64,000 nucleotides of DNA from a bacterium CG_4_9_14_3_um_filter_65_15 (GTDB taxonomy: Bacteria; Krumholzibacteriota; Krumholzibacteriia; LZORAL124-64-63). The position numbers were made by a program, and so were the translations under genes. A model generated the notes under the pieces. That model had not been told where the DNA came from. It worked only from the letters and a program-made list of their open reading frames with translations, and did no database searches. Of the stretch, positions 24,774-40,654 are shown one piece after another (position 1 is the stretch's first letter; every line of letters starts with the position of its first letter). The stretch is from contig PFVX01000024.1 in the NCBI GenBank assembly GCA_002790835.1, positions 7,167 to 71,166 on the forward strand, read 5' to 3'.

Positions 24774-24989
24774 TGAGCTTCGAGACCTTCCCCGGATCCG
24801 CCACTCCATCCATCTGGACGGTCCCCGGTATTCCTGCTGTGTTGACCCGGAGCCCTGCCCGCGTGCCGCGCCGGTGCTCCCATCCGGTTCACGTTACCGT
24901 GGCCGGTCTTCCCCGAGGGGGCGGCCGGGATGGGAAACCCTGATCGCACCCGGAGTCAGAATGACCATTTCCGGGGACGAATTCAAGTT

Positions 24990-27900: not shown

Positions 27901-30900
27901 GGATCATGCGGGGCATCAGCCGCACGGGTCTGGACCTTTCCAAATCCCAGTTCGTGGAGATCTGGGTCAACGACGGGATCCCCGAAAAGGAATTCCGTTC
28001 CGGTCGCCTGCACATCGACTTCGGGTACATCAACGAGGACGGCTTCTGGACCCGGGATCTCGACAGCAGCCTGGTCATCGGCAATTTTGATCAGGAGGAT
28101 GGCATCACTTATAAACCGGGCCCTCCCCCCACGGGCACTCCCCCCGACGGCATATTTTCCGCGGGTGACGAGGATATCGGCCTGGACGGCCAAGGGGAGA
28201 ACGGGCCCCAGGGCTACAGCGCGGAATATGAGATCGGCGGCGATTCGCCTTTCCCTCGTATCAACGGCACCGCCCGCAACAGCCGCGAGGACACCGAGGA
28301 TCTGAACCGCAACGCGCGGATGGATCGCAACGACGGGTATTTCACCACCGTTATCGACCTCCAGGATACCCCGGCTCTGATCGACGTGGATTACGACTTC
28401 GATTCCGCTGACGTGGCTGAACTCAAGGACCAGAACATCGCCTGGCGCAAGTACCGCATTCCCCTCGGAGCGGTGGACAAGGTGTCTGTCGGGTCCACCG
28501 CGGACATCCGATCCATCACCCACGCCCGGATCTGGTACGAGAACGATACGCAGGAAGCTCCCGATGCCGTGCGCCTCCAGCTGTCGGACTTCAAATTCCT
28601 GGGCAGCCGCTGGGAACGCGAAGGCGTGCGCCGGATCAGCGACGAGGCGCTGCTGGACGACATCGAGCGCCGGGGCGCCCAGTTCTTCCTGGGAGAGGTC
28701 AACAACAAGGAGAATCCCGACTACGTCCCGCCCTTCGCCGTGCACGAGATCAACAGCATCCCGGAAAAGGAACAGGCCCTGGTGCTGGATTTCGACGACC
28801 TGCAGCGGGGACAGATGATCCGGACCAGCAAGGTGGTCTCCCCCCGGGGAGACGACTACACCTTCTACAAGGATCTGTCCTGGTACTTCTCCAACCCCTC
28901 CCAGCAGAATGTTGACCTGGATCTTTTCTTCCGCGTGGGGTCGGACTCGCTGAATTTCTACGAGGTCAACTACCGCTTCGCCCAATCGACCTTCAAGGTG
29001 GGCTGGCAGCAGTTCACGGTGAACCTGGCCGAACTTTCCAACATCAAGAACGGCGAGATCGACATCGAGGGCGTGGCCCACGGAGAGGTCCCCGATGTCA
29101 ACACCGGCGAACTCTATTCCGCCCGCGTCGTCGGCCGGCCGGACCTGCGCCACATCAGGCGCTACTACTTCGGAGTGATGAACCAGGTCCTCAGCGAGGG
29201 AGCGCAGGGCTATTTCTACTTCAACGATGTCCGATTGCTGGACGTGAAGAAGGAATCGGGCATGGCCCAGAGGGCCGGTGTGCGTCTGAACATGGCCGAC
29301 ATCATCAAGGTGGATTTCGACTGGAAGCACACGGACTCCGAATTCCACGGCCTGGATGAACGCGCCGGTTCGGGGGTGGATTTTCGGGACTGGAATGTGG
29401 CCACGAATTTCAAGGTCGATGATTTCGTGCCCTTGCTGGGGTTCCAGCTTCCGGTGAACCTGAGCCGTCGCCGCACCGTCAACCGCCCGAAGTACGAGGT
29501 GAACAGCGACATCGAGATTCTCGAGGCATCCACGGCCGATGCCATGTCCACCATCGATGCCCAGGAGCGGTTCTCCACCCGTCTGCGCCACCCGCCGAGC
29601 AAGGCCGTCCTCGCCCGCTACCTAGTGGACCCCTGGACCCTTCAGGTCAGCGGATCGCGCACGACCTACGACGGCCCTCTGGCCGAAAGGCGGGGGAAGA
29701 GCCTGCAGGGCTCACTCAACTACGACCTGCGGATCAGCGGGCGCCACAGCCTGGGCGACTACCCGGTGCTGGCCTCCGTGCCCTTGTTGCGGGGGCTGTC
29801 ACTGGTGCCCACCAAGGTGACCCTGGGGGCCAACTTCACCAACCGTTGGAACGCCACCACGACTCTCAACGAAGACGGCGTGGTGACCCAGCGTTCCCAG
29901 TCGCAGAGCCGGCCGGGGGTTCTCAGCGCCAACCTGGACTACAATCCCTCCCTGATCCTCGATCTCACCTTGGCGGCGAAATCGGACCGGGACCTCCTGC
30001 GCGAAAAGCGGGCCTTCGGAGTCAACGTCGGCGAGGAGAATCAACGCAGTTACGATATGCGCATGACCGTCAAGACTCCTCGCGCCAAGGATCTGCCCGA
30101 CGGCCCCCTGTTCATGCCCCTGCGGTCGGCGGCCCGCTTGGCCAACAAGCTGCGGCCCTCGGTCCAGTTCAACGGCAAATTCGTCGACCAGCACGGCCCC
30201 GGGGTGCGCCAGACCGCGGGTCAGACCAATGTGCGCAACATCAACAATTCGGGGAATTGGGACTTCCGATTCGATGTGCCTCTCGGCGACTGGGTCAAGA
30301 GCGTATTCCCGGAACACCGCGTAACGAGCCAGGAGAGGCAACGGTTGATCAACGAGCAGCGTCGCCTGGAAAAGCGTGCGCTCCGGCAGGGTGGGTCCCC
30401 TCCCGGTCAAGGCCAACCCGAACAGGATATCGACGAGTCCGGATTGACCCCCGAGGAACGTCAGCGCCGGGAAGAAGAGCGGCTCCTGGAAGGGGCGCAA
30501 CAGCGGCAAGAGGAGGAGGCTGACCAGGGCTTGGCCGAGCCGGAGGAAGCTCCGCCCCCGACGGAGGGCGAGCGCCTCAGCCCCATGATTCTCATCAACC
30601 CTTTCCTGGATCTGCTGCGGGGCACCGCGCCGGTGAAGATCTCCACTTCGCGGCAACAGAACAGCACCTACAGCCAGTTGCGGACCGGAGCCCCCTTCTG
30701 GTACCAGACGGGTATTGAAAATGTTCTGGATGCGGCCGACAGCCTGTATGCCTCCAGGAGCTACCAGGACCGCAAGACGCTCAATCTCTCGAGCAGTTCG
30801 AAAATCACGCGGAACATCGGCTTGGACACCAAGTACACCGTCACCAGGTCGGTGCGGGATCAGGTCGGCAGCACGACCCGGAACAAGCAGGTCGATTGGC

Positions 30901-31514
30901 CGGACTTTTCCCTATCGGTCAGCGGTCTGGAGAAATGGGGGGTTTTCGGGGGCATCGCCAGCGACCCCAATGCGGGCAGGTTCCGTTCCGCGAACTTCAA
31001 TATCAGCTACAAGAAATCCGAAACGGTGAACAACTACACCGATACCTATTACAACCCCACCGTCAACAAGGTGATTTCGCCCCGCCTGACCTTCAATTTC
31101 CGGAGTGGTTTGTCGGCAACGGCCAATGCCACGGTGACCAGCAACGATGCTCAGTCCAACGGTGTGTTGACGTCCCTGCGCCGCCAACGCATCGGCTTGC
31201 AACTGAGGCACCAGTTCCGGGCCCAGAGGCTGCTGGCGAAACTGGGGCTGTACCGGCCCGGAAACAATCCCTCCATCACCATGGATGTGGATATCTCCTA
31301 TCAGCGCTCCCGCACCGAACGTTTCACTCCGGGTAGCGTGGTTTCCGCCCCCACGGGCCAGTCCAGTATCAGCCTGCGCCCCCGCTTCAGTTATCAGATT
31401 TCCCGGAGTCTCAGCGGCGCCTTCAACATGGGTTTTTCGAAGTCCAAGGATATCGCCACCGACCGGACAACGACTTCTCTCGGCATGGGAGTGGAGATGA
31501 CCTTTGTATTCTAG
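24990..31514 (+). CDS. sprA: T9SS outer-membrane translocon SprA/Sov (giant beta-barrel, 'cell surface protein SprA')
   Basis: Size is about 2,175 aa (SprA-like). It has an N-terminal signal peptide (RWYLGLLLLLGVLWGTADRALA), a long beta-rich sequence with G/T/S/N/Y periodicity, and a C-terminal aromatic residue (…GMGVEMTFVF) typical of OM barrels. The N-terminal region resembles the SprA N-domain (..SGTIGEKI.IEVDHNS..). The start is uncertain between 24930 and about 25035. Confidence 0.7.
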   Translation: MIRPHSPTGRGPGSVQVNPRPPSRAPRQSTGPRWYLGLLLLLGVLWGTADRALADPNYEGPLLYGLDPVIRSTDNPRLLGVDRLLLLRRMKSLGIDPQRTGITRPTLESSLRRVWDDRSRVDLQRRETVLEYNGLFGLMFEFRYPTFMFFYQEAVALPGGLTYYPPRPVRDPAVQVFVDDLHQGMMRRQTVDRRLTRMDDLAVAGKGRQNGQNDGLINLTIPIKLPHTLEKIIGRGEKTRIKISGREHFALNGESTVIKPFVGNERMSNQSLFPSLDMKQELQINLSGTIGEKIIIEVDHNSEAIGPEATKIKLMYQGLEDEVIKTIETGDVGLTLPGSQLLGYSSNKSGLFGFKVTGQVGRTDFTFVTSKQKSQSSSKTFNAKGGQEEDRIINASDYLNNRFFKLDLPDSEPQGRRQGETIVYGSVKIFKWLGTGIRGEGEVAVAAYFDSLGVHAWDSIDFGHPEPITEVGPRWQEITDFEALLDAAGSLIAIDMGRSYLDEDVLAVIYDVVDGNGVITSVGDKPGVDEPVQELPNDEGTFYRMKLLKVPHNKSNSRLFNYVLRNIYPLGGSNIDASTFDLRIEYEKPGLDQPQQDVNGLDFFRIFGLDQENAQGEPGHDNVVDFHDPYLFDLERGLLKFPLDFPTPFAADSTQYEAYADDSEKFKWETSTLKDNLAPEFYNYDKTIPPSRFGEYSRFHFVVHHASASSNISLGTSSIEEGSESVVVNGRTLTRGTDYSIDYTFGEIQLLGDAANLTPDSQISVNYQYAPFIGGGKTSLTGLNLGYDLGRNAKMSTTWLYQSEAIVGEKAKLGEEPSHTLVGNVNLNTTLKPYLLTHVANFLSRHDSDRESSIQLSGEMAVSLPNPNTKGQAYLEDFEGVDSSNYVSLTRASWSWASVPFLGEAYQDTSLDFRTFAPEKRVTTRWFLPRDRVLRRYLNPNLIKEERDDTQQVMDLYLRADEGWEGDNWGGIMRGISRTGLDLSKSQFVEIWVNDGIPEKEFRSGRLHIDFGYINEDGFWTRDLDSSLVIGNFDQEDGITYKPGPPPTGTPPDGIFSAGDEDIGLDGQGENGPQGYSAEYEIGGDSPFPRINGTARNSREDTEDLNRNARMDRNDGYFTTVIDLQDTPALIDVDYDFDSADVAELKDQNIAWRKYRIPLGAVDKVSVGSTADIRSITHARIWYENDTQEAPDAVRLQLSDFKFLGSRWEREGVRRISDEALLDDIERRGAQFFLGEVNNKENPDYVPPFAVHEINSIPEKEQALVLDFDDLQRGQMIRTSKVVSPRGDDYTFYKDLSWYFSNPSQQNVDLDLFFRVGSDSLNFYEVNYRFAQSTFKVGWQQFTVNLAELSNIKNGEIDIEGVAHGEVPDVNTGELYSARVVGRPDLRHIRRYYFGVMNQVLSEGAQGYFYFNDVRLLDVKKESGMAQRAGVRLNMADIIKVDFDWKHTDSEFHGLDERAGSGVDFRDWNVATNFKVDDFVPLLGFQLPVNLSRRRTVNRPKYEVNSDIEILEASTADAMSTIDAQERFSTRLRHPPSKAVLARYLVDPWTLQVSGSRTTYDGPLAERRGKSLQGSLNYDLRISGRHSLGDYPVLASVPLLRGLSLVPTKVTLGANFTNRWNATTTLNEDGVVTQRSQSQSRPGVLSANLDYNPSLILDLTLAAKSDRDLLREKRAFGVNVGEENQRSYDMRMTVKTPRAKDLPDGPLFMPLRSAARLANKLRPSVQFNGKFVDQHGPGVRQTAGQTNVRNINNSGNWDFRFDVPLGDWVKSVFPEHRVTSQERQRLINEQRRLEKRALRQGGSPPGQGQPEQDIDESGLTPEERQRREEERLLEGAQQRQEEEADQGLAEPEEAPPPTEGERLSPMILINPFLDLLRGTAPVKISTSRQQNSTYSQLRTGAPFWYQTGIENVLDAADSLYASRSYQDRKTLNLSSSSKITRNIGLDTKYTVTRSVRDQVGSTTRNKQVDWPDFSLSVSGLEKWGVFGGIASDPNAGRFRSANFNISYKKSETVNNYTDTYYNPTVNKVISPRLTFNFRSGLSATANATVTSNDAQSNGVLTSLRRQRIGLQLRHQFRAQRLLAKLGLYRPGNNPSITMDVDISYQRSRTERFTPGSVVSAPTGQSSISLRPRFSYQISRSLSGAFNMGFSKSKDIATDRTTTSLGMGVEMTFVF

Positions 31515-32463
31515 ATTGCGAACCTGGATCTGCAGGGCCCTGGTCGGTTTGATCGGGGTGGCCTTTGCATGGTCGACTTTCGCCTACGCGACGTCGGACA
31601 GCGGGGCGGTTCCCGTATTTTCCGGGAAACGCGCCATGGAACTCGTTCATCTCCAGTGCGACCTGGGTCCGCGGGTGCCGGGATCGCCGGCCAACCGCGC
31701 CCTGCAGGACACCATCCTGGCTCATGCGGAGGAATTGGGGTTCGAGGCTCGACGGGGTTGTTTCCGCGCCACGAATCCCCTGACCGGCGAAGAGATGGAT
31801 GTCTGCAATTTCGTGGTCATCCTGCCGGGCACGGGAGCCGGGCCTTCCCTGTGGTTGGGGGTCCACTTCGATTCCCGACCCCTGGCCGACCAGGACCCCG
31901 ATCCCCGGATCCGGACTCAGCCCGTCCCCGGGGCCAACGACGGCGCCAGCGGTGTGGCCGTCCTGTGGCACCTCATGGAAATGGCGGGGGCCAGCCCTCC
32001 GGCGCGCACCGTCGTGTTGATGTTCCTGGACGGCGAAGACTCCGGCCGGGAAGGGGATCCGGAGAGCTTCTGCCTGGGCAGCGCGCACCTGGCGGCCGGG
32101 TGGGGTGGGTTCAATAGTCTGTTGCCTGCCGCGAGGCCCGAGGGTGTGATCATCCTGGATATGGTGGGCGATGCCGATCTGGAAATCACCCAGGAATCCC
32201 TATCCTTGAAGTATGCGCCGGGTTGGACCTCACGGGTGTTCGAGAGGGCCGCCGCGCTTGGTCTGCCGGCGTTCCAGGCGCGCGGTGGTCGGGCTGTTTT
32301 CGATGACCACATTCCGTTTTTGCGCCGCGGCCTTCCCGCGGTGGATCTCATCGATTTCGACTACTCGCCCTGGCATACCGGCGGGGATGTTCCGAGTGCC
32401 TGCAGCGCTGGGAGTCTCGCTCAATCGGGCGCCCTGCTCACGGACCTGATCTACAATCCGTAA
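31504..32463 (+). CDS. Glutaminyl-peptide cyclotransferase-like protein (M28-fold, mono-zinc QC type), membrane-anchored
   Basis: HFDSR...PGANDGASGVAVL...FLDGEDSG matches the M28 zinc-site layout, but with N-D where aminopeptidases carry D-D, as in animal-type/Bacteroidetes glutaminyl cyclases. It has an N-terminal hydrophobic anchor. The TTG start at 31504 or 31516 overlaps or abuts the sprA stop. Confidence 0.65.
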   Translation: MYSRLRTWICRALVGLIGVAFAWSTFAYATSDSGAVPVFSGKRAMELVHLQCDLGPRVPGSPANRALQDTILAHAEELGFEARRGCFRATNPLTGEEMDVCNFVVILPGTGAGPSLWLGVHFDSRPLADQDPDPRIRTQPVPGANDGASGVAVLWHLMEMAGASPPARTVVLMFLDGEDSGREGDPESFCLGSAHLAAGWGGFNSLLPAARPEGVIILDMVGDADLEITQESLSLKYAPGWTSRVFERAAALGLPAFQARGGRAVFDDHIPFLRRGLPAVDLIDFDYSPWHTGGDVPSACSAGSLAQSGALLTDLIYNP

Positions 32464-32570: not shown

Positions 32571-33107
32571 ATGATCACCACCTGCACGGAGTGCCAGGCT
32601 CGTTATCAACTGGAGGACCAGAAGGTTCCCCGCCGTGTCATCAAGGTCCGCTGCCCTGACTGCAGCGGTATCTTCTCTCTGGATGGGACCGCTCGCGCCG
32701 AGGCGGAAGCTCCCCTGGTGGTCGAGCACGGAGGGCGCGATTTGACGCCGCAGCCGGTTGCTCCCGCGCCCCAGCTGTCCGGGGAACCCGTTCGGGCCCA
32801 GGCTCCGTCTGCCGGGGTTGCCGTCCTGGAAGAAACCGGCGTCGCCCCCGCAGCGAGTCGTGGCCGCCGCCGCCGCAGCAAGGAAGAGATGTACGCCCGC
32901 GCCCTGGTGTCGGATATCCTCGTCTACAACCGGGATGCCCGCGACCAGGCCCTCAAGGACGGGACCCTGGTCGAAGCCCTGGGGCAGGAGATCAAGAAGA
33001 GCTGGGAACTCTACAAGGAAAAGGTCACCCCGGAGGTGGCCAACGGCACCGATCATTTCAAGAAAGCCCTCAACGAGATCCTGGCCGAGGGCGCCGAGCT
33101 GTTCTGA
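32571..33107 (+). CDS. MJ0042-family zinc-ribbon protein with a C-terminal helical domain (function unknown)
   Basis: MITTCTECQARYQLEDQKVPRRVIKVRCPDCSGIF carries two CxxC pairs in the MJ0042-type zinc-finger layout. It is followed by a Pro/Ala-rich linker and a conserved-looking C-terminal EEMYARALVSDILVYNRDARDQALKDG... domain. ATG 32571 with RBS aaggagcaggga; the track ORF starts upstream at 32481. Confidence 0.6.
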   Translation: MITTCTECQARYQLEDQKVPRRVIKVRCPDCSGIFSLDGTARAEAEAPLVVEHGGRDLTPQPVAPAPQLSGEPVRAQAPSAGVAVLEETGVAPAASRGRRRRSKEEMYARALVSDILVYNRDARDQALKDGTLVEALGQEIKKSWELYKEKVTPEVANGTDHFKKALNEILAEGAELF

Positions 33108-33186
33108 TCCCGGGCGCCCCGACTTCGAGGCGTCCCTGTCCATGGCGAGACCCGGTCCTCGACCGGGTCTCCGCTTTTTGGGTTTT

Positions 33187-33630
33187 CTAGGACCCACCCC
33201 ATTTATCCCGACTGATCTCCTCGAGAATATCGTCGATCTGCTGCCTCACCCGGACGTTCTGGTCGGGTTCGAAGAGGGCTTGCTTGACCCTGCCCTGATC
33301 GTCCTTCTTCACGTAGCGCAGGCTCTGGAGGTCGGCCATGGACATGAGGATGTCCTTGCTGACCCGGACCTCGACCGGATGGCCCTCCTGGTTGAGGCGG
33401 GGATTGTTGAAGGGATGCATGCCGTTCCCCCAGCCGTGGACGACCATGGAGCAGAGCAGGGCGCGGAAGGTATTCTGGCCCTGCACGGTTTCCAGGTCGA
33501 AACTGCCCCCGACCTTCGCGATGACGCTGTCGATGACTGCGCACAATTTTGCCGCCAGTTGGGGTTCCACGTCCATCTGCAACAGTCGCGAAAACATGGT
33601 GTTGAGGATCTTGTCGGTGTTGGTGGACAT
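33187..33630 (-). CDS. Hypothetical protein (147 aa), divergently transcribed from the MglA-like gene
   Basis: The ORF MSTNTDKILNTMFSRLLQMD... starts at 33630 with a good RBS (gggag, 7-nt spacing). It is a soluble protein with no recognisable family. The track's longer versions (33753 start) lack an RBS. Confidence 0.5.
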   Translation of the reverse strand: MSTNTDKILNTMFSRLLQMDVEPQLAAKLCAVIDSVIAKVGGSFDLETVQGQNTFRALLCSMVVHGWGNGMHPFNNPRLNQEGHPVEVRVSKDILMSMADLQSLRYVKKDDQGRVKQALFEPDQNVRVRQQIDDILEEISRDKWGGS

Positions 33631-33892
33631 CTTGGAACTCCCGATCCTGTGCGGTCCTGTCGTTTCCCGTATGGGGGGGGATTGTCCCGAAATCCCCCAT
33701 CGGGGAGCATTGCGCCCGATTTCCGGGGAGGGTGTTGCAAATTGCTTGCCCAATCCGGTCGTACCCCCCGAATTCCCTTGAGTTTGTCAATACACCGGAA
33801 AATTTTCCATGGCATACCGATTGCACCCAAGGGGTGATCATGCCGCTGACCGTTCCTTTTGCCGGGGGTTGGATCCCGGAGGAGAGCTGCCC

Positions 33893-34720
33893 ATGTCGGT
33901 TCAGAATTTGACCGCCACCGCCTGCTGCCGTCTTCTGTATTACGGCCAGGCCGGAGTGGGCAAACGGGAGAATCTGCGGCTGATCCACCAGTTCGTGCCA
34001 CCGGAATCGCGCCTGTCGATCGCGGTGGAGGATCCCGAACGTCAGATCGGCTTCAACCTGCCCCAGCCGGGACAATCGTCGCGCCAGGTCCTGGTGCAGG
34101 CAGTGGATGTGGGGAAGGAGCGTTATCACGCCGCCGGGATGACGTCGCGGTTGCCCTTCGACGGCGTGGTCTTCGTCATCAACTCCGGAGTTTCCCAACT
34201 CGACCAATCGCTGGCCGCCTTCGAATCCCTCAAGATGTTCCTGGATTCGTGGGGGATGGACCTCATGCGGATCCCGGTGGTCCTTCAGTACAACCGCACC
34301 GGAAGTAACGAGGAAACGATCCCCGTGGATCGGCTGGAGAGCCTGCTCAATCCTTGGGGACTGCTCTCCTTCCCCGCCGCCACATTGCGCGGCGAAGGGG
34401 TCCGTGAAACCCTCAAGGCCGTCCTCGGCTTGGCGGTCAAGCACCAGGAGGAGCAGGCCGTCATGATGCCCAATTTCAACCCCCGGCACTCCGAGGCCCC
34501 ACCGGCGGAACCGGAGCCTCCGACGGAATCGAAGCTGCAACTGGAGTACGGCCCGGCGTTACCCGGCGCCGAGATGGAGGAATCCACCCGTCTGCGCAGT
34601 GAGCAGATCTTCAACGACCTGCGCCCTCCGCTGGTGATCCCGGTCAAGATTCCCCGTCGTCTGGTCAGCGGCCTCAAGGGACCGCTACGGGTCTTCCTGG
34701 AAATCGAATTCGAGGATTAG
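33893..34720 (+). CDS. MglA-like Ras-family small GTPase with degenerate nucleotide-binding motifs and an about 90-aa Pro/Glu-rich C-terminal extension
   Basis: Block-wise similarity to Myxococcus MglA: CCRLLYYGQAGVGKRENLRLI vs KIVYYGPGLCGKTTNLQYI; PFDGVVFVINSG vs GVDGVVFVADSQ; IPVVLQYNRTGS vs IPYVIQYNKRDL; GEGVRETLKAVLGLAV vs GVGVFDTLKAVAKLVL. The P-loop Ser/Thr is Arg, the switch-II Gln is Lys, and NKxD is NRTG. ATG 33893 with RBS ggaggagag. Confidence 0.7.
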   Translation: MSVQNLTATACCRLLYYGQAGVGKRENLRLIHQFVPPESRLSIAVEDPERQIGFNLPQPGQSSRQVLVQAVDVGKERYHAAGMTSRLPFDGVVFVINSGVSQLDQSLAAFESLKMFLDSWGMDLMRIPVVLQYNRTGSNEETIPVDRLESLLNPWGLLSFPAATLRGEGVRETLKAVLGLAVKHQEEQAVMMPNFNPRHSEAPPAEPEPPTESKLQLEYGPALPGAEMEESTRLRSEQIFNDLRPPLVIPVKIPRRLVSGLKGPLRVFLEIEFED

Positions 34721-34755
34721 CCGCCTGACTGTTGACCTGTTTGCGATCCTACCCT

Positions 34756-35637
34756 ATGGTCCCGACCATGGACACTCCAAGCACGACATCAGGGAAATCC
34801 GCCATCGGGCCGGATACCTTGGCGGACCAGCTGGCCGCCGGGCTCCGCCTGGAACGAGAGGGCCGGTGCGCGGCCGCCCTCGATCTTTACCACCACCTCC
34901 TGAGCGACCACCCCGACGAATGCCGCCTGCATTATCGGGCCGGCTGCGCGGCGCTCAAGATGGGTGAAGCCGCAACGGCCCAATCCTTTTTCCAGACCGC
35001 GGTGGCGCAGGATCCCGACAATCCCCGCTACCTGACGAATCTCGGGGTGGCTCTCGATCGCCTGGGCCGGCGCGAGGACGCCGTGAGGCTCTACAAACGG
35101 ACGGCCATGCTGGATGGGGGCACCGTGGTGGCTCACCATAATTTGGGTGCGATCTATGCCGAACAGGGGCGCATGGACGAAGCCTTGCGTTCGTTCCGGG
35201 CCGCCATCGCCCTGGAACCGGACGCCGAGGGCTATCACAACCTGGGACTCGTCCACTTCCGGGTCGATGATTTCGTTGCCGCCCTGGAGAATTTCCGCAA
35301 CGCCGTGGCGTGTGACTCCGGCTACGCGGTGGGCCACTATTACGTTGGCCTGTGCCTGATGAAAACGGGGAACTACATCGCCGCCATGGAAGCTTTCCAT
35401 AGAGCCTGGGGCCTGGATTCACGCCTCGCGCGGGTTCCCTACCACCTGGGATGCTGCCTGCACAAGCTGCAGCGGCATGAGGAGGCCCGCAGCCGCCTCG
35501 AACAGGCCCTGGACGCCTTCCCCGAGGATGGCCGTCTCCACTACCAGCTGGCCCTGACCTGTGACGCCTTGGGATTGCACCCCGAAGCCCGGATTCACTA
35601 CGGCATGGCCACGGGACGCAACAACCCCAACGAATGA
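34756..35637 (+). CDS. Tetratricopeptide-repeat (TPR) protein
   Basis: About 290 aa with at least six TPR units (e.g. AHHNLGAIYAEQGRMDEALRSFRAAIALEPD; GHYYVGLCLMKTGNYIAAMEAFHRAW). It lies immediately downstream of the MglA-like gene. Start is uncertain (TTG 34732, ATG 34756 or ATG 34768). Confidence 0.7.
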   Translation: MVPTMDTPSTTSGKSAIGPDTLADQLAAGLRLEREGRCAAALDLYHHLLSDHPDECRLHYRAGCAALKMGEAATAQSFFQTAVAQDPDNPRYLTNLGVALDRLGRREDAVRLYKRTAMLDGGTVVAHHNLGAIYAEQGRMDEALRSFRAAIALEPDAEGYHNLGLVHFRVDDFVAALENFRNAVACDSGYAVGHYYVGLCLMKTGNYIAAMEAFHRAWGLDSRLARVPYHLGCCLHKLQRHEEARSRLEQALDAFPEDGRLHYQLALTCDALGLHPEARIHYGMATGRNNPNE

Positions 35638-35675: not shown

Positions 35676-36464
35676 GTGCCCGAGTTTCTCAACATGCTTA
35701 TCCTGGCGGTAGTCCAGGGGTTGACCGAGTTCCTGCCCGTCAGCAGTTCCGGTCATCTCGTCCTGCTCCAGCATTTCCTGGGAACCCGGGAAGGCGATGT
35801 GTTCTTCGATGTCGTCCTGCATGGAGGCACCCTGTTTTCGATTCTCGCGGTGTACCGCAGGGAACTGGTCCGGCTGCTGAAACTCGATTCCGATTCACTC
35901 CGGTACATTCTGGCCCTCGGCTTGGCGACGGTGCCGGCGGTGGTGGTGGGTCTGCTGGCGCAGGATACCATCGATCGCCTGTTCGGCGCCCCACGTCTGG
36001 CCAGCCTGGGCCTGATCTTCACGGGGTTGGTGCTGCTTTCCACCCGTCTGGTCCACGGGGCCGGGGGGGGCGACGCTGGCGAATGGAAACCCCGGCCGGT
36101 GGCACCGCTTCAGGCCCTGTTGATCGGATGCGCCCAGGCCCTGGCCATATGTCCGGGAATCAGCCGCTCGGGTTCGACCATCGCGGCATCCCTGTGGCTC
36201 GGATTGCCACGGACGGAGGCCACCCGCTTCAGCTTCCTGATGGCCATCCCGGCCATCGCCGGCGCGGTCGTCTTGAATCTGGTCAAGGGTGGCGGGGCCG
36301 ATAGTGTGGGGGGCGGGTTCCTGCTGGCTGCCGCCGTGGTTTCCTTCGGGGTGGGGCTGTTGGCTATCCGTTTGACGGCTCTGGCGGTGGTCCGGGCGCA
36401 TTTCTGGAAGTTCAGCTTCTACTGCCTCGCCGTGGGAGCGGTGGCCTGGATCGTCCTGTCCTGA
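35676..36464 (+). CDS. uppP: Undecaprenyl-diphosphate phosphatase
   Basis: VQGLTEFLPVSSSGHLVL is the N-terminal UppP/BacA signature; 262 aa, polytopic; a second conserved motif PGISRSGSTI is present. GTG start. Confidence 0.9.
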   Translation: MPEFLNMLILAVVQGLTEFLPVSSSGHLVLLQHFLGTREGDVFFDVVLHGGTLFSILAVYRRELVRLLKLDSDSLRYILALGLATVPAVVVGLLAQDTIDRLFGAPRLASLGLIFTGLVLLSTRLVHGAGGGDAGEWKPRPVAPLQALLIGCAQALAICPGISRSGSTIAASLWLGLPRTEATRFSFLMAIPAIAGAVVLNLVKGGGADSVGGGFLLAAAVVSFGVGLLAIRLTALAVVRAHFWKFSFYCLAVGAVAWIVLS

Positions 36465-36477
36465 TCGGGGCGGTCGA

Positions 36478-36852
36478 TCAGGCCGGGCTGCCCTGCAAGA
36501 GATTGGCCACCGTGGCTGCCACGCGGTTTTCGTCGAAGGGCTTGATGATGAAATCCTTCGCTCCGGCCTTGATGCCCGAAAGGACCAGGTTGCGTTGGCC
36601 CAGAGGTGCGACCAGGACGACCTGGGCCTCGGGATCGGCCGTCAGGATGCCGGTGAGGGCCTCCAGACCGTCTGCATCGGGCAAGGTGGTGTCCAGCATG
36701 ACAATCTGGGGCCGGAGTCTCCGGAATTCCTTGATGGTTTCTTCGGCGTCGGCGGCTTCGCCGACAACCTTCATTCCCATGTTTTCCAGAATGTCCCTGA
36801 GCATGGCCCGCATGAAGTCTGCGTCGTCGGCGATGAGTACGGTGTGGCCCAA
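36478..36852 (-). CDS. Stand-alone response regulator receiver domain (CheY-like)
   Basis: HTVLIADDADFMRAMLRDILENMGMKVVGEAADAEE...IVMLDTTLPDADG...VVLVAPLGQ...AGAKDFIIKPF carries the receiver Asp pocket (DD, D, T/S, K). A TTG at 36852 has RBS ggagg; the track ORF's upstream extension to 36945 is unlikely. Confidence 0.75.
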   Translation of the reverse strand: MGHTVLIADDADFMRAMLRDILENMGMKVVGEAADAEETIKEFRRLRPQIVMLDTTLPDADGLEALTGILTADPEAQVVLVAPLGQRNLVLSGIKAGAKDFIIKPFDENRVAATVANLLQGSPA

Positions 36853-37027
36853 AGGGTAAACCTCCGCGATGCTTGCTATGGGCGCCGCGAGGGCCAGCGC
36901 GGGGAACGGATTTCCGGGCGGTCTGTTTGCAAAGTACGCGTACATGATCGGCCCGGTAGCCGGGGACTTTAGGACCCGGTGTCACGGGTGAGTTGAATAG
37001 GTGGTGGGATCCTCGAGGAGGGGACTT

Positions 37028-38449
37028 ATGCGATCAAGAACAAGAATTCTCTGGGGGACGGCCCTGGCTCTGACCTGCAGCCTTATGGCGGCTCAGATTC
37101 TCGCCGCAGAGGTCCCCGTCCTGCATTCCGACCGTTCGGACCTGCAGGAGGTCTACCTGACGGTTTACAACCAGAACCTGGCTCTGGTCAGGGAGGTCCG
37201 GGAAATCAACCTCCCGGCCGGAGACTTCTCCCTCGAATACCGGGAAGTCCCCTCGTCCATCCAGCCGGCGACCCTGCTGGTTGAGGCCGACCCCCGCACC
37301 AGGTTGACGCTCTACGACCAGAACTACGAGTATGACCTGATGACTCCCGATAAGATCCTGGAAAAGTATGTGGGGCGCGAGGTGTCCTGGATCCAGGAGG
37401 ACGGGTCGCGGATCACCGGGCGCCTGCTGGGCGTCAACGGTCGTCCGGTCTACCAGGTTGGTGAGGAGATCCTGTTCGGGGTCCCCGGTCGCCTGGCTCT
37501 TCCCGATTTGCCCCCCAACCTGCGGGCGCGGCCGACCCTGGTGTGGAATGCCCATGCCGGGCAGTCCGGCAAGACGCGGGTCGAGGCGTCCTACCTGACC
37601 GGCGGTTTGAATTGGCATTGCGACTACGTGTTGCAGCTCGACCGGGCCGGCACCTCGGCGGGCATGCAAGCCTGGGTGACGCTTGACAATCAATGCGGAA
37701 CGGGCTTTGACGGAGCCACACTCCAGCTCGTAGCCGGGGATATCAACCGCGCCACCCAGGATCGGGCCCGACCGATGGATATGGGATTTGCCGTGAAATC
37801 CTTGGCCGGAGCACCGCCGAGCTTCCAGGAGGAGAGCCTTTACGACTACCATCTGTACACCCTGGACCGGCCGACCGATCTGAAGGACAAACAGACCAAG
37901 CAGGTCTCCCTCTTCGACCGCAGCGGAATCAAGGTGAGTCGGCGCTACCTTCTGCAGGGTAATCCCCGCTTTTTCCGGGGTTACGACCAGCTTCAGGACT
38001 ACGGCAAGATCAAGGTGATCTACAGCTTCGAAAATGCCGAGGACAACCGACTGGGGATGCCCATGCCGGCGGGAGTGGTGCGGATCTACGGCCTGTCGTC
38101 TTCGGGTGGCAGGCAGCTCCTCGGTGAGGATCGGATCGATCATACGCCGCAGGATGAGACCGTCGACCTGACCGTGGGCACGGCGTTCGACATCGTCGCC
38201 GAGCGGGTGCGCGAAAGTGTCGAAAAGGTGAGCGACCGGATCACGCGCAACACCAATCGCGTGACCCTGCGCAACCACAAGGACGAGGATATCGTCGTCG
38301 ACGTGCGCGAACCGGTCGGGGGCCAATGGGAAGTCTTGGAGAGCACTTTCCCCGCCAAGAGGATCAGCGCCTCGGAGTTGGGCTTTTCCGTTCCGGTCAA
38401 AGCAGGCAAGGAGGCGGTGTTGAAGTACCGGGTGGAAGTGCGGTACTGA
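37028..38449 (+). CDS. DUF4139/DUF4140-domain protein (mucoidy-inhibitor MuiA-like family), secreted
   Basis: Signal peptide MRSRTRILWGTALALTCSLMAAQILA; N-terminal VYLTVYNQNLALVREVREINLPAGD... resembles the DUF4140 start, and the long C-terminal beta-rich region resembles DUF4139. ATG 37028 with RBS gaggagggg. Confidence 0.55.
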   Translation: MRSRTRILWGTALALTCSLMAAQILAAEVPVLHSDRSDLQEVYLTVYNQNLALVREVREINLPAGDFSLEYREVPSSIQPATLLVEADPRTRLTLYDQNYEYDLMTPDKILEKYVGREVSWIQEDGSRITGRLLGVNGRPVYQVGEEILFGVPGRLALPDLPPNLRARPTLVWNAHAGQSGKTRVEASYLTGGLNWHCDYVLQLDRAGTSAGMQAWVTLDNQCGTGFDGATLQLVAGDINRATQDRARPMDMGFAVKSLAGAPPSFQEESLYDYHLYTLDRPTDLKDKQTKQVSLFDRSGIKVSRRYLLQGNPRFFRGYDQLQDYGKIKVIYSFENAEDNRLGMPMPAGVVRIYGLSSSGGRQLLGEDRIDHTPQDETVDLTVGTAFDIVAERVRESVEKVSDRITRNTNRVTLRNHKDEDIVVDVREPVGGQWEVLESTFPAKRISASELGFSVPVKAGKEAVLKYRVEVRY

Positions 38450-38474
38450 TGATGTGTGCGGTACTGATGATGTC
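38439..38474. repeat. 18-bp tandem direct repeat (TGCGGTACTGATGATGTG / ...TC) spanning the stop codons of two convergent genes
   Basis: Read directly: two adjacent copies, 17/18 identical. Copy 1 contains the TGA of the DUF4139 gene, and copy 2 abuts the TAG (reverse strand) of the TPR-membrane gene. Confidence 0.6.
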
Positions 38475-40654
38475 TAGCGGCCGCGCAGCTGCCTGAGTCG
38501 GTTGCGCAACCCCGGGTCCTGGGGCCTGAGGGCCACGGCCTTTTCCAGAGCGGCGATCGCTGAAGGGCGGTCGCCGTTCTGCATCTGGGCCACGCCCAGA
38601 TTGGCCCAACCCTGGAAGTCGTCGGGGTCGAGGGCCACCGCGCGACGAAACCAGGTTACGGCACCCGGGGCATCGCCGAGATTCAGGGCGCAAACACCGG
38701 CGTTGAGCATCGAACCCGATTGGCGGGGATTGACCTCCACGGCGGCGGCGAAATGCCGGGCGGCGGCCGGGAAATCGCCCTTGGCCATTTCCCGATTTCC
38801 CAGGTTGTGCAACAGACCGGGATGGTCGGGACGCCGACTCAGCCCCTCCTGGAGAATCGTCGCGGACTGGGCGGGGAGGCCGGCCAACTCGGCCAGGCGG
38901 GAGGCGGCCAGGAAGAGATCCGCCGCCCTTGCCGCGCGCGCGCAGGAGCGGGCGGATTCCCGGGCAGAGGAAACGGCCCGGCCGAGAACGTCGCCTGAGG
39001 GGGGCGGGGAATTCTTCACCCACAGCATCCCGCCCGGACCGGCCGCCTGCAGGGACCAATCCTGCTCGTTCTGGAGGGAGCCGGCCAGACCATCGGCCGC
39101 GCCGCTGCCCTGGGCCAGACAGACCGCCGTGACCCGCTGCCGGTCCAGTTCCGCCAGGGCCCCGGTCCCACCCTGCTTGATCAGGTTGTAGGTGTTCCAG
39201 GTCGCAGCCGGAAACAGCTCGGTCCTGCCGTCGATGAACAGGGGGTTCGCGGTCCGGGCGATCACGAAGGCGGCGGCATCGAGGTTGGCGAAGGTTCGCT
39301 GGGGCTTTTGCCCTGCCAGGGCAGCGGTGGCGTCGATCGGATAAACCGCGGGGGTCAAGCCGCCTCCGAACCGTCGGCCCACGCCTTCGCGGAGGTAAAA
39401 ATCGTCGTGGATAATGCCGGGCCACCACACCAACAACGCGCCCAGCGCCGCTGCCAGGGGCAGCAAGGTCAGGGTCCGGGAGACCGCACGGGCGTGCAGG
39501 ATTCTGCGGATCGGTTGCGGCGGCCCGCCCCAGTCACCGCCGGGAAGCAGCATGAAGGCCACCGCCGCGAAGCCCAGGTTGCGGGCGCTGAACCACGCCG
39601 CCCAGGCGGCGGCGAAGAACACGAGGCTGCGCAGGATGTTGGGGCGCGGCCAGGCCAGCAGGATCCGACCGAGTCCCCAGAGTACGGCCACCTTGAACAG
39701 CAGGATGGTGGTGAATAGGCTTTGCGGCGACCGGGCCAGGGGGACCAGTTCACTGATGGTTCCGCGGAGATCCGCGCCATGGCCCGTGAATTGGCCGATG
39801 ACGGTGAAGGGATAGACCCAGCCCCGCCAACCTGCCGGAGTCAGGCCCAGGGCAAGCCAGCAAAACGCGAGGGTGGTTGCCCAGCGCCGCCAGTCGAAGG
39901 GTTGCCGGTTTCGGTTCAGCTTGGCCTGAAGCGGGAACAGGATTCCCGCCAGCAAAACCAGCAGGGGAACCAGCACCGCAAATCCGTGGAACTGGGCCCA
40001 GACGAGAGCAAGCCACGACACGCGCCCGCATTCGTGGCCCGGGTGGAGATAACTGCGCCAGCCGGGACGTCGGCCCGGCGGAGCTTGCATACATTTCTCG
40101 ATGGCGGGGATGGTCAGCACCAGCATGAGGTAGGAGATCAGCTCCGGCCGGATGGTCAGGCGGGGCCACAACAACCCCAGGCCCAGGAGCTGGGCCGGCA
40201 GGGTCCAGGCGTCAGCCAGGTGGGACCGGCTCTGTGTGGGGCGGACCAGCAGGGTCGTCAGGACAAGGACCAGGGCCAGCCGCAGGGTATTCCAGCCGGC
40301 CGCAAGAGTCGCCGGGTCGGTGGGGGCATTGGCGAGAGCGGTCGCCAGCTTCCCGACCCCCGCGATCAGGACCTGGAATAGCCACTCGTGATCAAACCAG
40401 GGGACGCCGGCTGCGCTGAAGGTGAAGAGGTTGGATTGGGGAAAGCGCCCGGCGAGAATTTCTCCCCCCACACGCCAATGGAGCCAGATGTCCAGGTCCC
40501 CCAGGGAATGCCAGGCCAGGAGGAGGGCCGTCACCAGGAGGGGCAGGCGGCTCCCCAGACGCGCCCAGCGCATCCCGCCGGAACCGACGCCTGTCGGGGG
40601 CCCGGGGAGATCCGTGTTTTCGGATGGTTCATTCATGGGGTGCCAATTTATCAT
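38474..40654 (-). CDS. Polytopic membrane protein (GT-C / protein-O-mannosyltransferase-like, DUF2723-type) with a C-terminal TPR-repeat domain
   Basis: 726 aa. The N-terminal ~300 residues hold many hydrophobic segments with Trp/Arg-rich loops; the C-terminal ~200 aa contain clear TPR units (HNLGNREMAKGDFPAAARHFAAAVEVNP; GWANLGVAQMQNGDRPSAIAALEKAVALRP). Family assignment is by architecture only. Confidence 0.5.
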   Translation of the reverse strand: MINWHPMNEPSENTDLPGPPTGVGSGGMRWARLGSRLPLLVTALLLAWHSLGDLDIWLHWRVGGEILAGRFPQSNLFTFSAAGVPWFDHEWLFQVLIAGVGKLATALANAPTDPATLAAGWNTLRLALVLVLTTLLVRPTQSRSHLADAWTLPAQLLGLGLLWPRLTIRPELISYLMLVLTIPAIEKCMQAPPGRRPGWRSYLHPGHECGRVSWLALVWAQFHGFAVLVPLLVLLAGILFPLQAKLNRNRQPFDWRRWATTLAFCWLALGLTPAGWRGWVYPFTVIGQFTGHGADLRGTISELVPLARSPQSLFTTILLFKVAVLWGLGRILLAWPRPNILRSLVFFAAAWAAWFSARNLGFAAVAFMLLPGGDWGGPPQPIRRILHARAVSRTLTLLPLAAALGALLVWWPGIIHDDFYLREGVGRRFGGGLTPAVYPIDATAALAGQKPQRTFANLDAAAFVIARTANPLFIDGRTELFPAATWNTYNLIKQGGTGALAELDRQRVTAVCLAQGSGAADGLAGSLQNEQDWSLQAAGPGGMLWVKNSPPPSGDVLGRAVSSARESARSCARAARAADLFLAASRLAELAGLPAQSATILQEGLSRRPDHPGLLHNLGNREMAKGDFPAAARHFAAAVEVNPRQSGSMLNAGVCALNLGDAPGAVTWFRRAVALDPDDFQGWANLGVAQMQNGDRPSAIAALEKAVALRPQDPGLRNRLRQLRGR

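Follow-up and report, generated by a model that had tools for sequence, protein, structure and literature searches.

A conserved gene cluster around a probable MglA-derived pseudo-GTPase in the Krumholzibacteriota

Introduction

The small GTPase MglA, RomX and tetratricopeptide repeat (TPR) effectors form the best-understood switch of bacterial cell polarity, which has been studied almost only in Myxococcus, Bdellovibrio and Thermus. Here we analyze four neighboring genes, encoding a zinc-ribbon protein, a 147-residue protein (u147), a GTPase-like protein and a TPR protein, that occupy positions 32571-35637 of a 64,000-nucleotide stretch of DNA (the window) from the Krumholzibacteriota bacterium CG_4_9_14_3_um_filter_65_15, and whose homologs lie in records labelled Candidatus Krumholzibacteria or Krumholzibacteriota. 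A preliminary description of this stretch had noted that the four genes follow sprA, a gene of the type IX secretion system (T9SS), and had proposed that they control type IX secretion or surface motility. The results presented here indicate instead that the locus is probably the Krumholzibacteriota version of an old, conserved and cytoplasmic small-G-protein module of the MglA type.

Several described systems provide a frame for this locus. In Myxococcus xanthus, residues R11, R14 and D19 on helix 1 of RomX bind MglA-GTP, while L75, R76 and W87 bind the receiver domain of RomR, and the preprint reporting these contacts already noted the co-occurrence of zinc-finger domains with the RomX fold (bioRxiv 10.1101/2024.02.20.581209); whether RomR-RomX is a GEF (guanine nucleotide exchange factor) or works as an effector is disputed (PMC13408092). 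The arrangement of domains in GltJ, also from M. xanthus, constitutes a switch operated by MglA-GTP (PMC11135422). Bdellovibrio bacteriovorus has an MglA without MglB that is thought to be locked in the GTP-bound state and that binds a TPR protein at the cell pole (PMC3983030). More generally, a coupled MglB gene within four genes of mglA is typical, but not obligatory. A 2014 survey of prokaryotic Ras-like GTPases was confined to proteins of 150-240 aa and predates the genomes of the phyla considered here (PMC4316618); at 275 aa, the window protein falls outside this filter.

The locus resembles each of these systems in part. The GTPase-like protein shares its G-domain fold with the MglA proteins of M. 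xanthus and Thermus thermophilus, which are its best matches in sequence and structure, but it carries GKR and ERQ at key positions, lacks Gln82 and the NKxD lysine, extends to 275 aa with a linker and a tail, and has no MglB nearby. The C-terminal domain of the zinc-ribbon protein is homologous to M. xanthus RomX (8zna) and keeps R14 and D19; RomX, however, stands alone, whereas in the window protein a zinc ribbon and a flexible linker precede the domain, which has a Met at the R11 equivalent in Krumholzibacteriota, lacks the W87 and L75/R76 contacts and comes with no identified RomR. An MJ0042-type zinc ribbon is shared with GltJ and with ZitP of Caulobacter, and in GltJ, too, a flexible linker and a further binding module come after it; this module is a GYF domain in GltJ and a RomX-like domain in the window protein, which has no transmembrane or periplasmic part. 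The MglB-less MglA of Bdellovibrio and its TPR partner Bd2492 provide the nearest functional precedent. The Bdellovibrio MglA differs in keeping its GTP-binding residues, and its TPR gene in lying in a tamAB operon and not beside mglA. Full-text searches of the literature returned no paper linking MglA to Krumholzibacteriota or Latescibacterota, no description of an MglA-type pseudo-GTPase, and nothing relevant on Krumholzibacteriota and type IX secretion.

Results

The GTPase-like protein is related to MglA

The gene for the GTPase-like protein lies at 33893-34720 on the forward strand; its longest open reading frame (ORF) begins at 33809, but homologs and gene calls start at the ATG at 33893. 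The 275-aa product has no Pfam or NCBIfam match at E ≤ 0.1; its family numbers at least 482 proteins, with lengths of about 275 aa. A profile built from 30 family sequences retrieved M. xanthus and T. thermophilus MglA from the PDB with E = 8e-23 and 8e-21, the next family being Arl6 at 1.6e-3, and alignment to M. xanthus MglA with hhalign gave a probability of 99.3. The M. xanthus MglA query used for hhalign and for the comparison of profile scores was entered by hand; the independent PDB search yielded the same alignment. A Foldseek search with the AlphaFold (AF2) model, which has a predicted local distance difference test (pLDDT) score of 83, returned MglA at all of ranks 1-14, with FeoB, Rab and Ras 4-5 orders of magnitude behind. 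The protein is hence closest to MglA, and not to Rab, Arf or other Ras-like proteins, as the preliminary description had held.

Its G domain (aa ~11-190) is followed by a Pro/Ala-rich linker, a helix (aa 231-243) and a conserved tail motif (aa 244-275; 34622-34717, forward strand), RPPLVIPVKIPRRLVSGLKGPLRVFLEIEFED, in a region with an AF2 pLDDT of ~75-85. To characterize the G domain, we surveyed the nucleotide-binding motifs of 120 family members. In G1, the Walker A Ser/Thr of GxxxxGK[ST] is replaced by an invariant Arg, giving GxxxxGK-R in 119 of the 120 sequences (GQAGVGKR in the window protein, 33944-33967). The canonical DRT of G2 gives way to a nearly invariant DPERQIAF (DPERQIGF at 34031-34054), which retains an Arg in alignment with R53, the arginine finger of MglA, and has Gln in place of Thr54. 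In G3, VDxGxE (VDVGKE, 34103-34120) takes the place of TVPGQ and the TxxGQ signature; the position of the catalytic Gln82 is variable (R/K/Q/S/T/H/A/L), and an Asp/Glu in this region is invariant across the family. G4 reads N[RGNEQSH]xx (within QYNRTG, 34286-34303) instead of [NT]KxD, the NKxD lysine being found in no member and the Asp in about half.

With all four defining motifs replaced, the protein is not a strict member of the MglA family, although it keeps MglA-specific features such as the YYG...GK context of the P-loop, QYN in G4 and G.GV..TLK in G5. The replacement of every catalytic or specificity motif across the family makes it probably a pseudo-GTPase, in line with the first impression recorded for this gene, and the motifs predict that GTP binding and hydrolysis have been lost. 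Across 55 genome loci and 39 metagenome loci the reading frame is uninterrupted, the family alignment has ~60 invariant columns, and codon statistics are normal. The conservation of the replacements, the intact frames and the invariant columns together indicate a protein under selection and not a decaying gene.

A RomX-like domain links the zinc-ribbon protein to MglA

The zinc-ribbon gene (32571-33107, forward strand) encodes a protein of 178 aa made up of an N-terminal zinc ribbon of the MJ0042/ZitP/GltJ type with a CxxC...CxxC pattern (aa 1-39; 32571-32687), a variable Pro/Ala-rich linker, a basic RRRR stretch and a C-terminal RomX-like domain of three helices (aa 103-178; 32877-33104). The zinc ribbon, named as such in the preliminary description, exceeds the cut-offs of Pfam Zn_ribbon_4 (45.6 bits, cut-off 30.3) and TIGR02098 (31.8 bits, cut-off 20.9) and is nearly invariant in 42 Krumholzibacteriota orthologs; matches to Pfam and NCBIfam models are confined to residues 1-35. 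On the GltJ equivalog NF033761 the protein scores 15.6 bits against a cut-off of 450, and the zinc ribbon alone aligns.

The last 75 residues are strongly conserved, and Pfam holds no model for the domain they form. Searched against the PDB, the C-terminal domain matched RomX (8zna) with E = 2.6e-8 as a single sequence in phmmer and with E = 3.2e-17 as a profile of 31 sequences, the next match having E = 5.6e-3; the homology spans RomX residues 3-76. The RomX helix-1 residues R14 and D19 are kept (ARALVSDI), and the equivalent of R11 is Met in 41 of 42 Krumholzibacteriota sequences and Arg in lineages with a canonical MglA. The protein stops ~5 residues beyond the aligned helix 3, and the Trp at position 87 has no equivalent in it.

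Given that RomX is a partner of MglA-GTP in M. xanthus, the RomX-like domain is, as judged from homology, the strongest functional link within the cluster. The preliminary description had connected this protein with MglA through its zinc ribbon, on the understanding that the zinc ribbon of GltJ binds MglA. That the protein belongs with MglA holds, but the basis is the RomX-like domain and not the zinc ribbon; the GltJ segment that binds MglA-GTP is the linker, and the partner of its zinc ribbon is MglB (PMC11135422).

The combination of zinc ribbon, linker and RomX-like domain proved to be widespread in an exhaustive search. A two-part query joining the RomX-like domain and u147 yielded ~900 clusters at 50% identity (E ≤ 1e-3), and among the 150 matches listed ~15 fell in the u147 part and the others in the RomX-like part. 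Five proteins of 600-970 aa (P0287, P0288, P0298, P0324 and P0381) carry 3-5 tandem RomX-like repeats, with a clear N-terminal zinc ribbon in all of them but P0381; as far as our searches show, this multi-RomX architecture is undescribed.

A version of the cluster with canonical MglA exists outside the phylum

Homologs of the cluster outside the Krumholzibacteriota include loci with an intact G protein. In locus L068, reached through a relative of Zn-RomX, the gene order is recG, a gene of unassigned family, an HDOD gene, Zn-RomX (the zinc-ribbon/RomX-like fusion), HATPase_c_2, u147 on the opposite strand (64% identical to the window protein) and an MglA of 504 aa. This MglA is fully canonical (GKT/DRT/TVPGQ/NKRD) and ends in the same kind of C-terminal tail. 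A search with its sequence retrieved further proteins of this kind, over 100 in number and 350-560 aa in length, here called "long MglA" (P0394-P0513); some of them are labelled Eisenbacteria or Latescibacterota, and 114 of 120 have GKT. In the Latescibacterota genome CP070763.1 (L070) the order is ftsA, ftsZ, an unassigned gene, recG, Zn-RomX, HATPase_c_2, u147 (reverse strand), MglA, a receiver (REC) gene and a TPR gene; locus L071 reads recG, Zn-RomX, u147 (reverse strand), MglA, TPR, trpA and uppP, and a contig labelled Eisenbacteria keeps MglA-TPR-uppP. The cluster is conserved across at least three labelled candidate phyla, in one of them only in part.

The long MglA proteins share with the window protein a gene cluster with Zn-RomX, TPR and often UppP, a divergent u147 and the tail motif; they differ in their canonical motifs and in linkers that are much longer. 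All the features of their cluster (divergent u147, nearby Zn-RomX, downstream TPR gene, tail motif) are present at the window locus. The tail pattern common to the canonical proteins (VLEIPVTLD..L..G..IRIVLNL) is the one seen in the window protein, and in 101 of 110 long MglAs a hidden Markov model of the Krumholzibacteriota tail matched best at the very C-terminal end, against at most 0.9 bits for shuffled controls. Profile scores do not set the degenerate G domain apart (65-116 bits for long MglAs and 84 bits for M. xanthus MglA), and since they are not discriminating, descent from long MglA rests on synteny and the tail motif. On these grounds, the window protein appears to be a degenerate, shortened derivative of long MglA.

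A metagenome scan seeded with u147 returned 80 loci. Where the contig left room, an MglA or MglA-like gene was the divergent neighbor of u147 in 45 of 48 loci and Zn-RomX was present in 46 of 46. The P-loop carries GKR in 39 of the metagenome loci, all with a u147 at least 70% identical to the window protein, and GKT in 20, all with a u147 below 70%. GKR is always paired with Met at the RomX R11 position (85 loci) and GKT with Arg (14 loci).

In most lineages with a canonical MglA, a HATPase_c_2 gene (RsbW/SpoIIAB-like) stands between Zn-RomX and u147, for instance at 8902-9768 in L068 and at 6129-6950 in L070; the set of loci called for this gene includes 20 metagenome loci with room on the Zn-RomX side. 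It is found in no GKR (Krumholzibacteriota) locus; its loss and the degeneration of the GTPase coincide.

The four genes are contiguous across the Krumholzibacteriota, and the sprA junction is derived

To examine the conservation of the cluster within the phylum we assembled 55 species-level genome loci, the upstream side being resolved in 43 and not in 12. The genes for the zinc-ribbon, u147, GTPase-like and TPR proteins are contiguous in essentially all 55 where sequence is present, a clustering far beyond chance that bears out the initial view of the four as a conserved unit. The median gaps between matches are 97, 255 and 79 nt, the second of these separating u147 from the GTPase-like gene in 54 loci. 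Two loci depart from this spacing: L025, with 1.3 kb between the Zn-RomX and u147 matches, and L056, with gaps of 755 and 691 nt that may reflect partial matches. Collinearity across the phylum extends beyond the four genes, to ~20 kb of the surrounding DNA. Taxon labels were taken from record titles, some of which are evidently wrong. Twelve loci (L003, L004, L014, L027, L029, L042, L044, L048, L051, L053, L054 and L057) carry a Krumholzibacteriota-type cluster under foreign titles, and titles of metagenome-assembled genomes such as "uncultured Fibrobacteraceae", "Gemmatimonadales" and "Deltaproteobacteria" likely stem from mislabelling or mis-binning.

Upstream of the zinc-ribbon gene, the window contains sprA (24930-31514, forward strand, SprA_N annotation) and a gene of the M28 family (31504-32463, forward strand, Peptidase_M28 annotation) that overlaps it by 11 nt. 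This pair is conserved in 35 species-level loci, and the best solved relatives of the M28-family protein are bacterial glutamine cyclotransferases (6qql, 7cje; E ~1e-35). An operon of SprA and a glutaminyl cyclase would fit the formation of N-terminal pyroglutamate on T9SS-related proteins.

The sprA/M28 pair precedes the zinc-ribbon gene in 35 of the 43 resolved genome loci and recG does so in the other 8, where recG is itself preceded by ftsA-ftsZ and two TPR-like genes (ftsA-ftsZ-TPR-x-recG); recG-type genome loci fetched with 10-kb flanks contained no sprA match. Among the metagenome loci, the gene beyond Zn-RomX is sprA/M28 in 22 GKR loci and recG in 7, and recG in all 13 resolved GKT loci, none of which has sprA. 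The presence of the recG arrangement in both GKT and GKR lineages identifies it as ancestral. As reconstructed from these gene orders, the adjacency to sprA is a derived rearrangement within one Krumholzibacteriota subclade and not evidence of a common function, and none of the four proteins matches a T9SS or gliding family in Pfam or NCBIfam. The T9SS or gliding connection of the preliminary description consequently did not hold up when co-localization was followed across genomes.

The 147-residue protein is a highly conserved orphan

The u147 gene (33187-33630, reverse strand), identified by coding statistics and conservation, is convergent with the zinc-ribbon gene and divergent from the GTPase-like gene. 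Its product is the most conserved member of the cluster, with 70-89% identity across the phylum against ~55% for its neighbors. Identity to the Latescibacterota, L068 and L071 orthologs is 64-66%, compared with 57% for FtsZ, 44-49% for RecG and 31-34% for MglA in the same comparisons. Fifty-five of its 147 positions are at least 97% invariant, including a core QGQNTFRAL.CSM..HGWG.GMHP; Cys60, His65 and His72 are among the invariant residues. The family is small, an exhaustive search giving only ~15 clusters at 50% identity.

This conservation is matched by a lack of recognizable relatives. There is no Pfam or NCBIfam match at E ≤ 0.1, two profile searches of the PDB, one with a broadened alignment, returned no relative, and the AF2 model is poor (pLDDT 53), with nothing below E = 1 in Foldseek. 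The protein is an orphan family. The idea that it is a divergent MglB/Roadblock protein is unsupported, there being no similarity to the MglB chains of the PDB, and no Pfam match to Roadblock/MglB appeared among the genes called in the 8-10 kb fetched on each side of the loci. The degree of conservation of u147 is the same whether the neighboring MglA is canonical or degenerate, which makes it unlikely that the protein serves only to stimulate GTP hydrolysis.

In distant lineages the neighbors of u147 are inconsistent and uninformative, and comprise an MFS transporter, an RsbW-like kinase, a CHU_C cargo protein and a PorV-like protein. We also observed that a homolog of 43% identity adjoins a protein with a CHU_C T9SS signal and a weakly PorV-like protein (L064/L065), that in two loci TPR-uppP directly abuts u147, as though mglA had been deleted, and that one Krumholzibacteriota-type contig has parAB/jag/yidC on the MglA side of u147.

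The TPR protein and the genes downstream

The fourth gene (34756-35637, forward strand, with an alternative TTG start at 34732) encodes a TPR protein of 293 aa. It follows the GTPase-like gene directly, as first described, starting 35 nt past its stop codon, a gap that makes it a probable operon partner. The two genes adjoin each other in 53 loci, where a median of 79 nt separates their tblastn matches, and homologous TPR genes lie 3' of canonical MglA in L070, L071 and L072. Its repeats match TPR_1, TPR_2 and related Pfam models with E values down to 6e-35. SgmX and Bd2492 are TPR proteins that serve as MglA effectors elsewhere. The window protein matched only generic TPR models, the named equivalogs Tgl, GltE, PilW and MamA staying below their cut-offs. 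The protein is cytoplasmic, with no signal peptide by eye.

Downstream on the same strand is uppP (35676-36464; undecaprenyl-diphosphatase, UppP/BacA; Pfam BacA E = 1.9e-67), which also follows MglA-TPR in L071 and in the Eisenbacteria locus. The presence of uppP, ubiA and trpA between the TPR gene and the next genes varies, and we regard uppP as probable context and not as an established member of the module. On the opposite strand lies a CheY-type receiver (36478-36945) with ~30 extra N-terminal residues, whose best PDB matches are Thermotoga CheY (1e-31). It was considered as an equivalent of RomR and ruled out: it is of the CheY type, it is encoded on the opposite strand, and it is no ortholog of the REC protein encoded after MglA in Latescibacterota (L070, 9204-9569), the tblastn comparison of the two giving no match. 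Farther downstream, a DUF4139/DUF4140 protein with a signal-peptide-like N-terminus by eye (37001-38449) and a 726-aa protein with C-terminal TPR repeats (38474-40654) are conserved in this position across the phylum.

Gene calls, transcription units and genomic context

The window has a GC content of 63% and many spurious long ORFs, and each candidate gene was therefore screened by GC content at the three codon positions. GC1/GC2/GC3 of all four genes is of the coding type for a 63% GC genome, and the same gene set was called independently on public contigs with an identical GTPase-like protein. An ORF of 147 aa on the forward strand at 33338-33781, with an atypical GC1/GC2/GC3 pattern, was discarded as a non-coding antisense artefact.

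A consensus scan located a hairpin with a perfect, GC-rich stem of 11 bp and a T-run at 33147-33171, between the convergent zinc-ribbon and u147 genes. It is likely a bidirectional terminator, and a terminator in this place would put the zinc-ribbon and GTPase-like genes on separate transcripts. Three transcription units are therefore likely: (sprA-M28-)Zn-RomX, u147 alone and GTPase-like-TPR(-uppP). The promoters of u147 and the GTPase-like gene presumably both lie within the 262-bp divergent intergenic region (33631-33892), defined by its geometry, in which a consensus scan detected no sigma-70 match.

The rest of the window (1-24000 and 41000-64000) is apparently housekeeping core genome, judging by eye from ORF translations. 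Apparent core genes include those for L27, CTP synthase, an LptB-like ABC ATPase, RpoN, HPF, HprK, PtsI and MetK, together with LptF/G, a sigma-70 factor, a DsbD-like protein, UvrA/UvrB and GroES/GroEL; among these, LptF/G, sigma-70 and DsbD have Pfam backing.

Discussion

Taken together, the results favor, with reasonable though not full confidence, a scheme in which the locus is the Krumholzibacteriota version of an ancient MglA-type module. The ancestral module comprises a zinc-ribbon/linker/RomX-like adaptor, a divergent 147-residue protein, a cytoplasmic TPR protein and a long MglA in which a disordered linker joins a canonical G domain to a C-terminal tail motif of ~30 residues. This form, situated downstream of ftsA-ftsZ-recG and with no MglB nearby, persists in the Latescibacterota, L068 and L071 lineages. 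In the Krumholzibacteriota, the G protein has lost the residues for Mg2+ coordination, gamma-phosphate sensing, water activation and guanine reading, whereas the fold, the glycines and lysine of the P-loop, the position of the arginine finger, the tail motif and every partner gene were kept. Such a pseudo-MglA would no longer cycle as a GTPase and would serve as a scaffold in a fixed state, contacting the RomX-like domain by way of the helix-1 surface that RomX uses for MglA-GTP, and the TPR protein possibly by the tail. From there, the complex would be linked by the zinc ribbon, the TPR domain and u147 to the cell pole, the division site, another landmark or an envelope machine. The data show the homologies, the lost motifs, the conserved cluster and its older upstream neighbors; how the proteins interact, which nucleotide state the G protein is in and what it acts on in the cell are inferred.

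A more specific version would have the pseudo-MglA permanently engaged with the Zn-RomX adaptor, the TPR protein and u147 in a nucleotide-independent polarity or landmark complex, with u147 representing a new class of MglA partners that replaces MglB across several candidate phyla of the FCB (Fibrobacteres-Chlorobi-Bacteroidetes) group, and with the complex positioning or gating an envelope machine, such as the T9SS translocon, in the sprA-linked subclade. We put this forward as a speculation that is unlikely to be correct in all its parts.

Several observations weigh against the proposed scheme or limit it. The correlation of GKR with Met in the RomX-like domain is probably a single event on one branch and does not count as independent evidence. 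The loss of nucleotide binding is predicted from motifs only, and the retained GxxxxGK with its invariant Arg could allow binding of nucleotide independently of Mg. The RomX residues that bind the RomR receiver (L75, R76 and W87) have no clear equivalent in the zinc-ribbon protein. Distant Zn-RomX-like genes occur without an MglA neighbor, as do distant homologs of u147 (34-55% identity) and a few closer ones; L126 and L128 are among such u147 loci. Within the phylum, uppP, the CheY-type gene, the DUF4139 gene, a gene for a downstream TPR protein and a sigma-70 factor gene are as syntenic as the four genes, so that gene order alone does not delimit the module there. Finally, MglB was sought in the flanks of the loci, and these genomes may encode a canonical MglA, an MglB or a RomR elsewhere.

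The explanation from which the analysis started, that the four genes, encoded with the SprA translocon, are dedicated to the regulation or the spatial control of type IX secretion or of T9SS-dependent gliding, draws on the position of sprA and the glutaminyl-cyclase-like gene directly upstream on the same strand, in the window as in most resolved genome loci, and on the possibility of readthrough from sprA-M28 into the zinc-ribbon gene, after which the first terminator-like hairpin lies; MglA modules, moreover, govern surface machines in Myxococcus and Bdellovibrio. We nevertheless find it improbable. The 8 genome loci with ftsA-ftsZ-TPR-x-recG have the quartet at another junction, recG and never sprA is upstream in the 13 canonical-MglA metagenome loci and in the Latescibacterota genome, the occurrence of recG in GKT and GKR lineages alike makes that arrangement the older one, no protein of the four matches a T9SS or gliding family, and the window around them is, by eye, syntenic core genome. 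The sprA neighborhood does not identify the T9SS as the target, and the locus is classed here as a variant of the MglA polarity system and not as a T9SS component. The ancestral site at the end of the division cluster raises another option, namely that the module serves cell division, cell-pole identity or envelope growth instead of motility or secretion. The ftsA-ftsZ-(TPR)-recG genes lie upstream in clade B Krumholzibacteriota and Latescibacterota, with recG in L068 and L071, and a gene for undecaprenyl-phosphate recycling, uppP, directly follows MglA-TPR in Krumholzibacteriota, L071 and Eisenbacteria; M. xanthus MglA is reported to connect to MreB (PMC4508894). Such an argument shares the weakness of the one built on sprA, in that it relies on adjacency to housekeeping genes in a region of conserved order where uppP, ubiA and trpA come and go after the TPR gene, and we consider a division or envelope role a minority possibility.

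A different question is whether the G protein still switches. It might be a non-canonical nucleotide switch, for instance one that handles GTP or ATP independently of Mg2+ with the Arg in place of the metal, served by u147 as a dedicated GTPase-activating protein or GEF instead of MglB. The strict conservation of the P-loop glycines and lysine, of the Arg aligned to the arginine finger and of the G3-region Asp/Glu speaks for this, as P-loops usually decay in pseudo-GTPases that do not bind nucleotide, and so does the location of u147 next to mglA, where mglB would be expected, with no MglB gene nearby. Against it, the G2 Thr, the catalytic Gln and NKxD are gone, with neither the Gln nor the Asp position fixed even among family members, and u147 has no detectable similarity to Roadblock/MglB, shows equal conservation with either form of MglA and sometimes occurs where MglA is missing, which argues against a purely catalytic role on MglA; on balance, a retained switch seems rather unlikely. 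That the four genes are mere neighbors, held together by slow genome rearrangement and functionally unrelated, would accord with the ~20 kb of collinearity across the phylum and with the distant Zn-RomX and u147 homologs that stand alone. The juxtaposition of a RomX homolog and an MglA homolog would, however, be an unlikely coincidence, and the Zn-RomX-u147-MglA trio has survived the recG/sprA breakpoint, the gain or loss of HATPase_c_2 and REC genes and a divergence at the level of phyla in which MglA identity is down to 31-34%. The close spacing of the GTPase-like and TPR genes, in the window and across the loci, adds to the case against chance adjacency, which we judge very improbable.

If the preferred reading of an MglA-type module is correct, a partnership of the MglA/RomX type has become fixed as one gene cluster in uncultured phyla of the FCB group. 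The cluster would add to the polarity system two partners unknown from the model organisms, a zinc-ribbon/RomX fusion and a 147-residue protein more conserved than FtsZ. It also corrects an attractive false lead, as a position beside sprA does not imply control of the T9SS. Finally, an apparent pseudo-GTPase that has kept all of its partners constitutes a natural experiment, which may bear on the question of which MglA functions need the nucleotide cycle.

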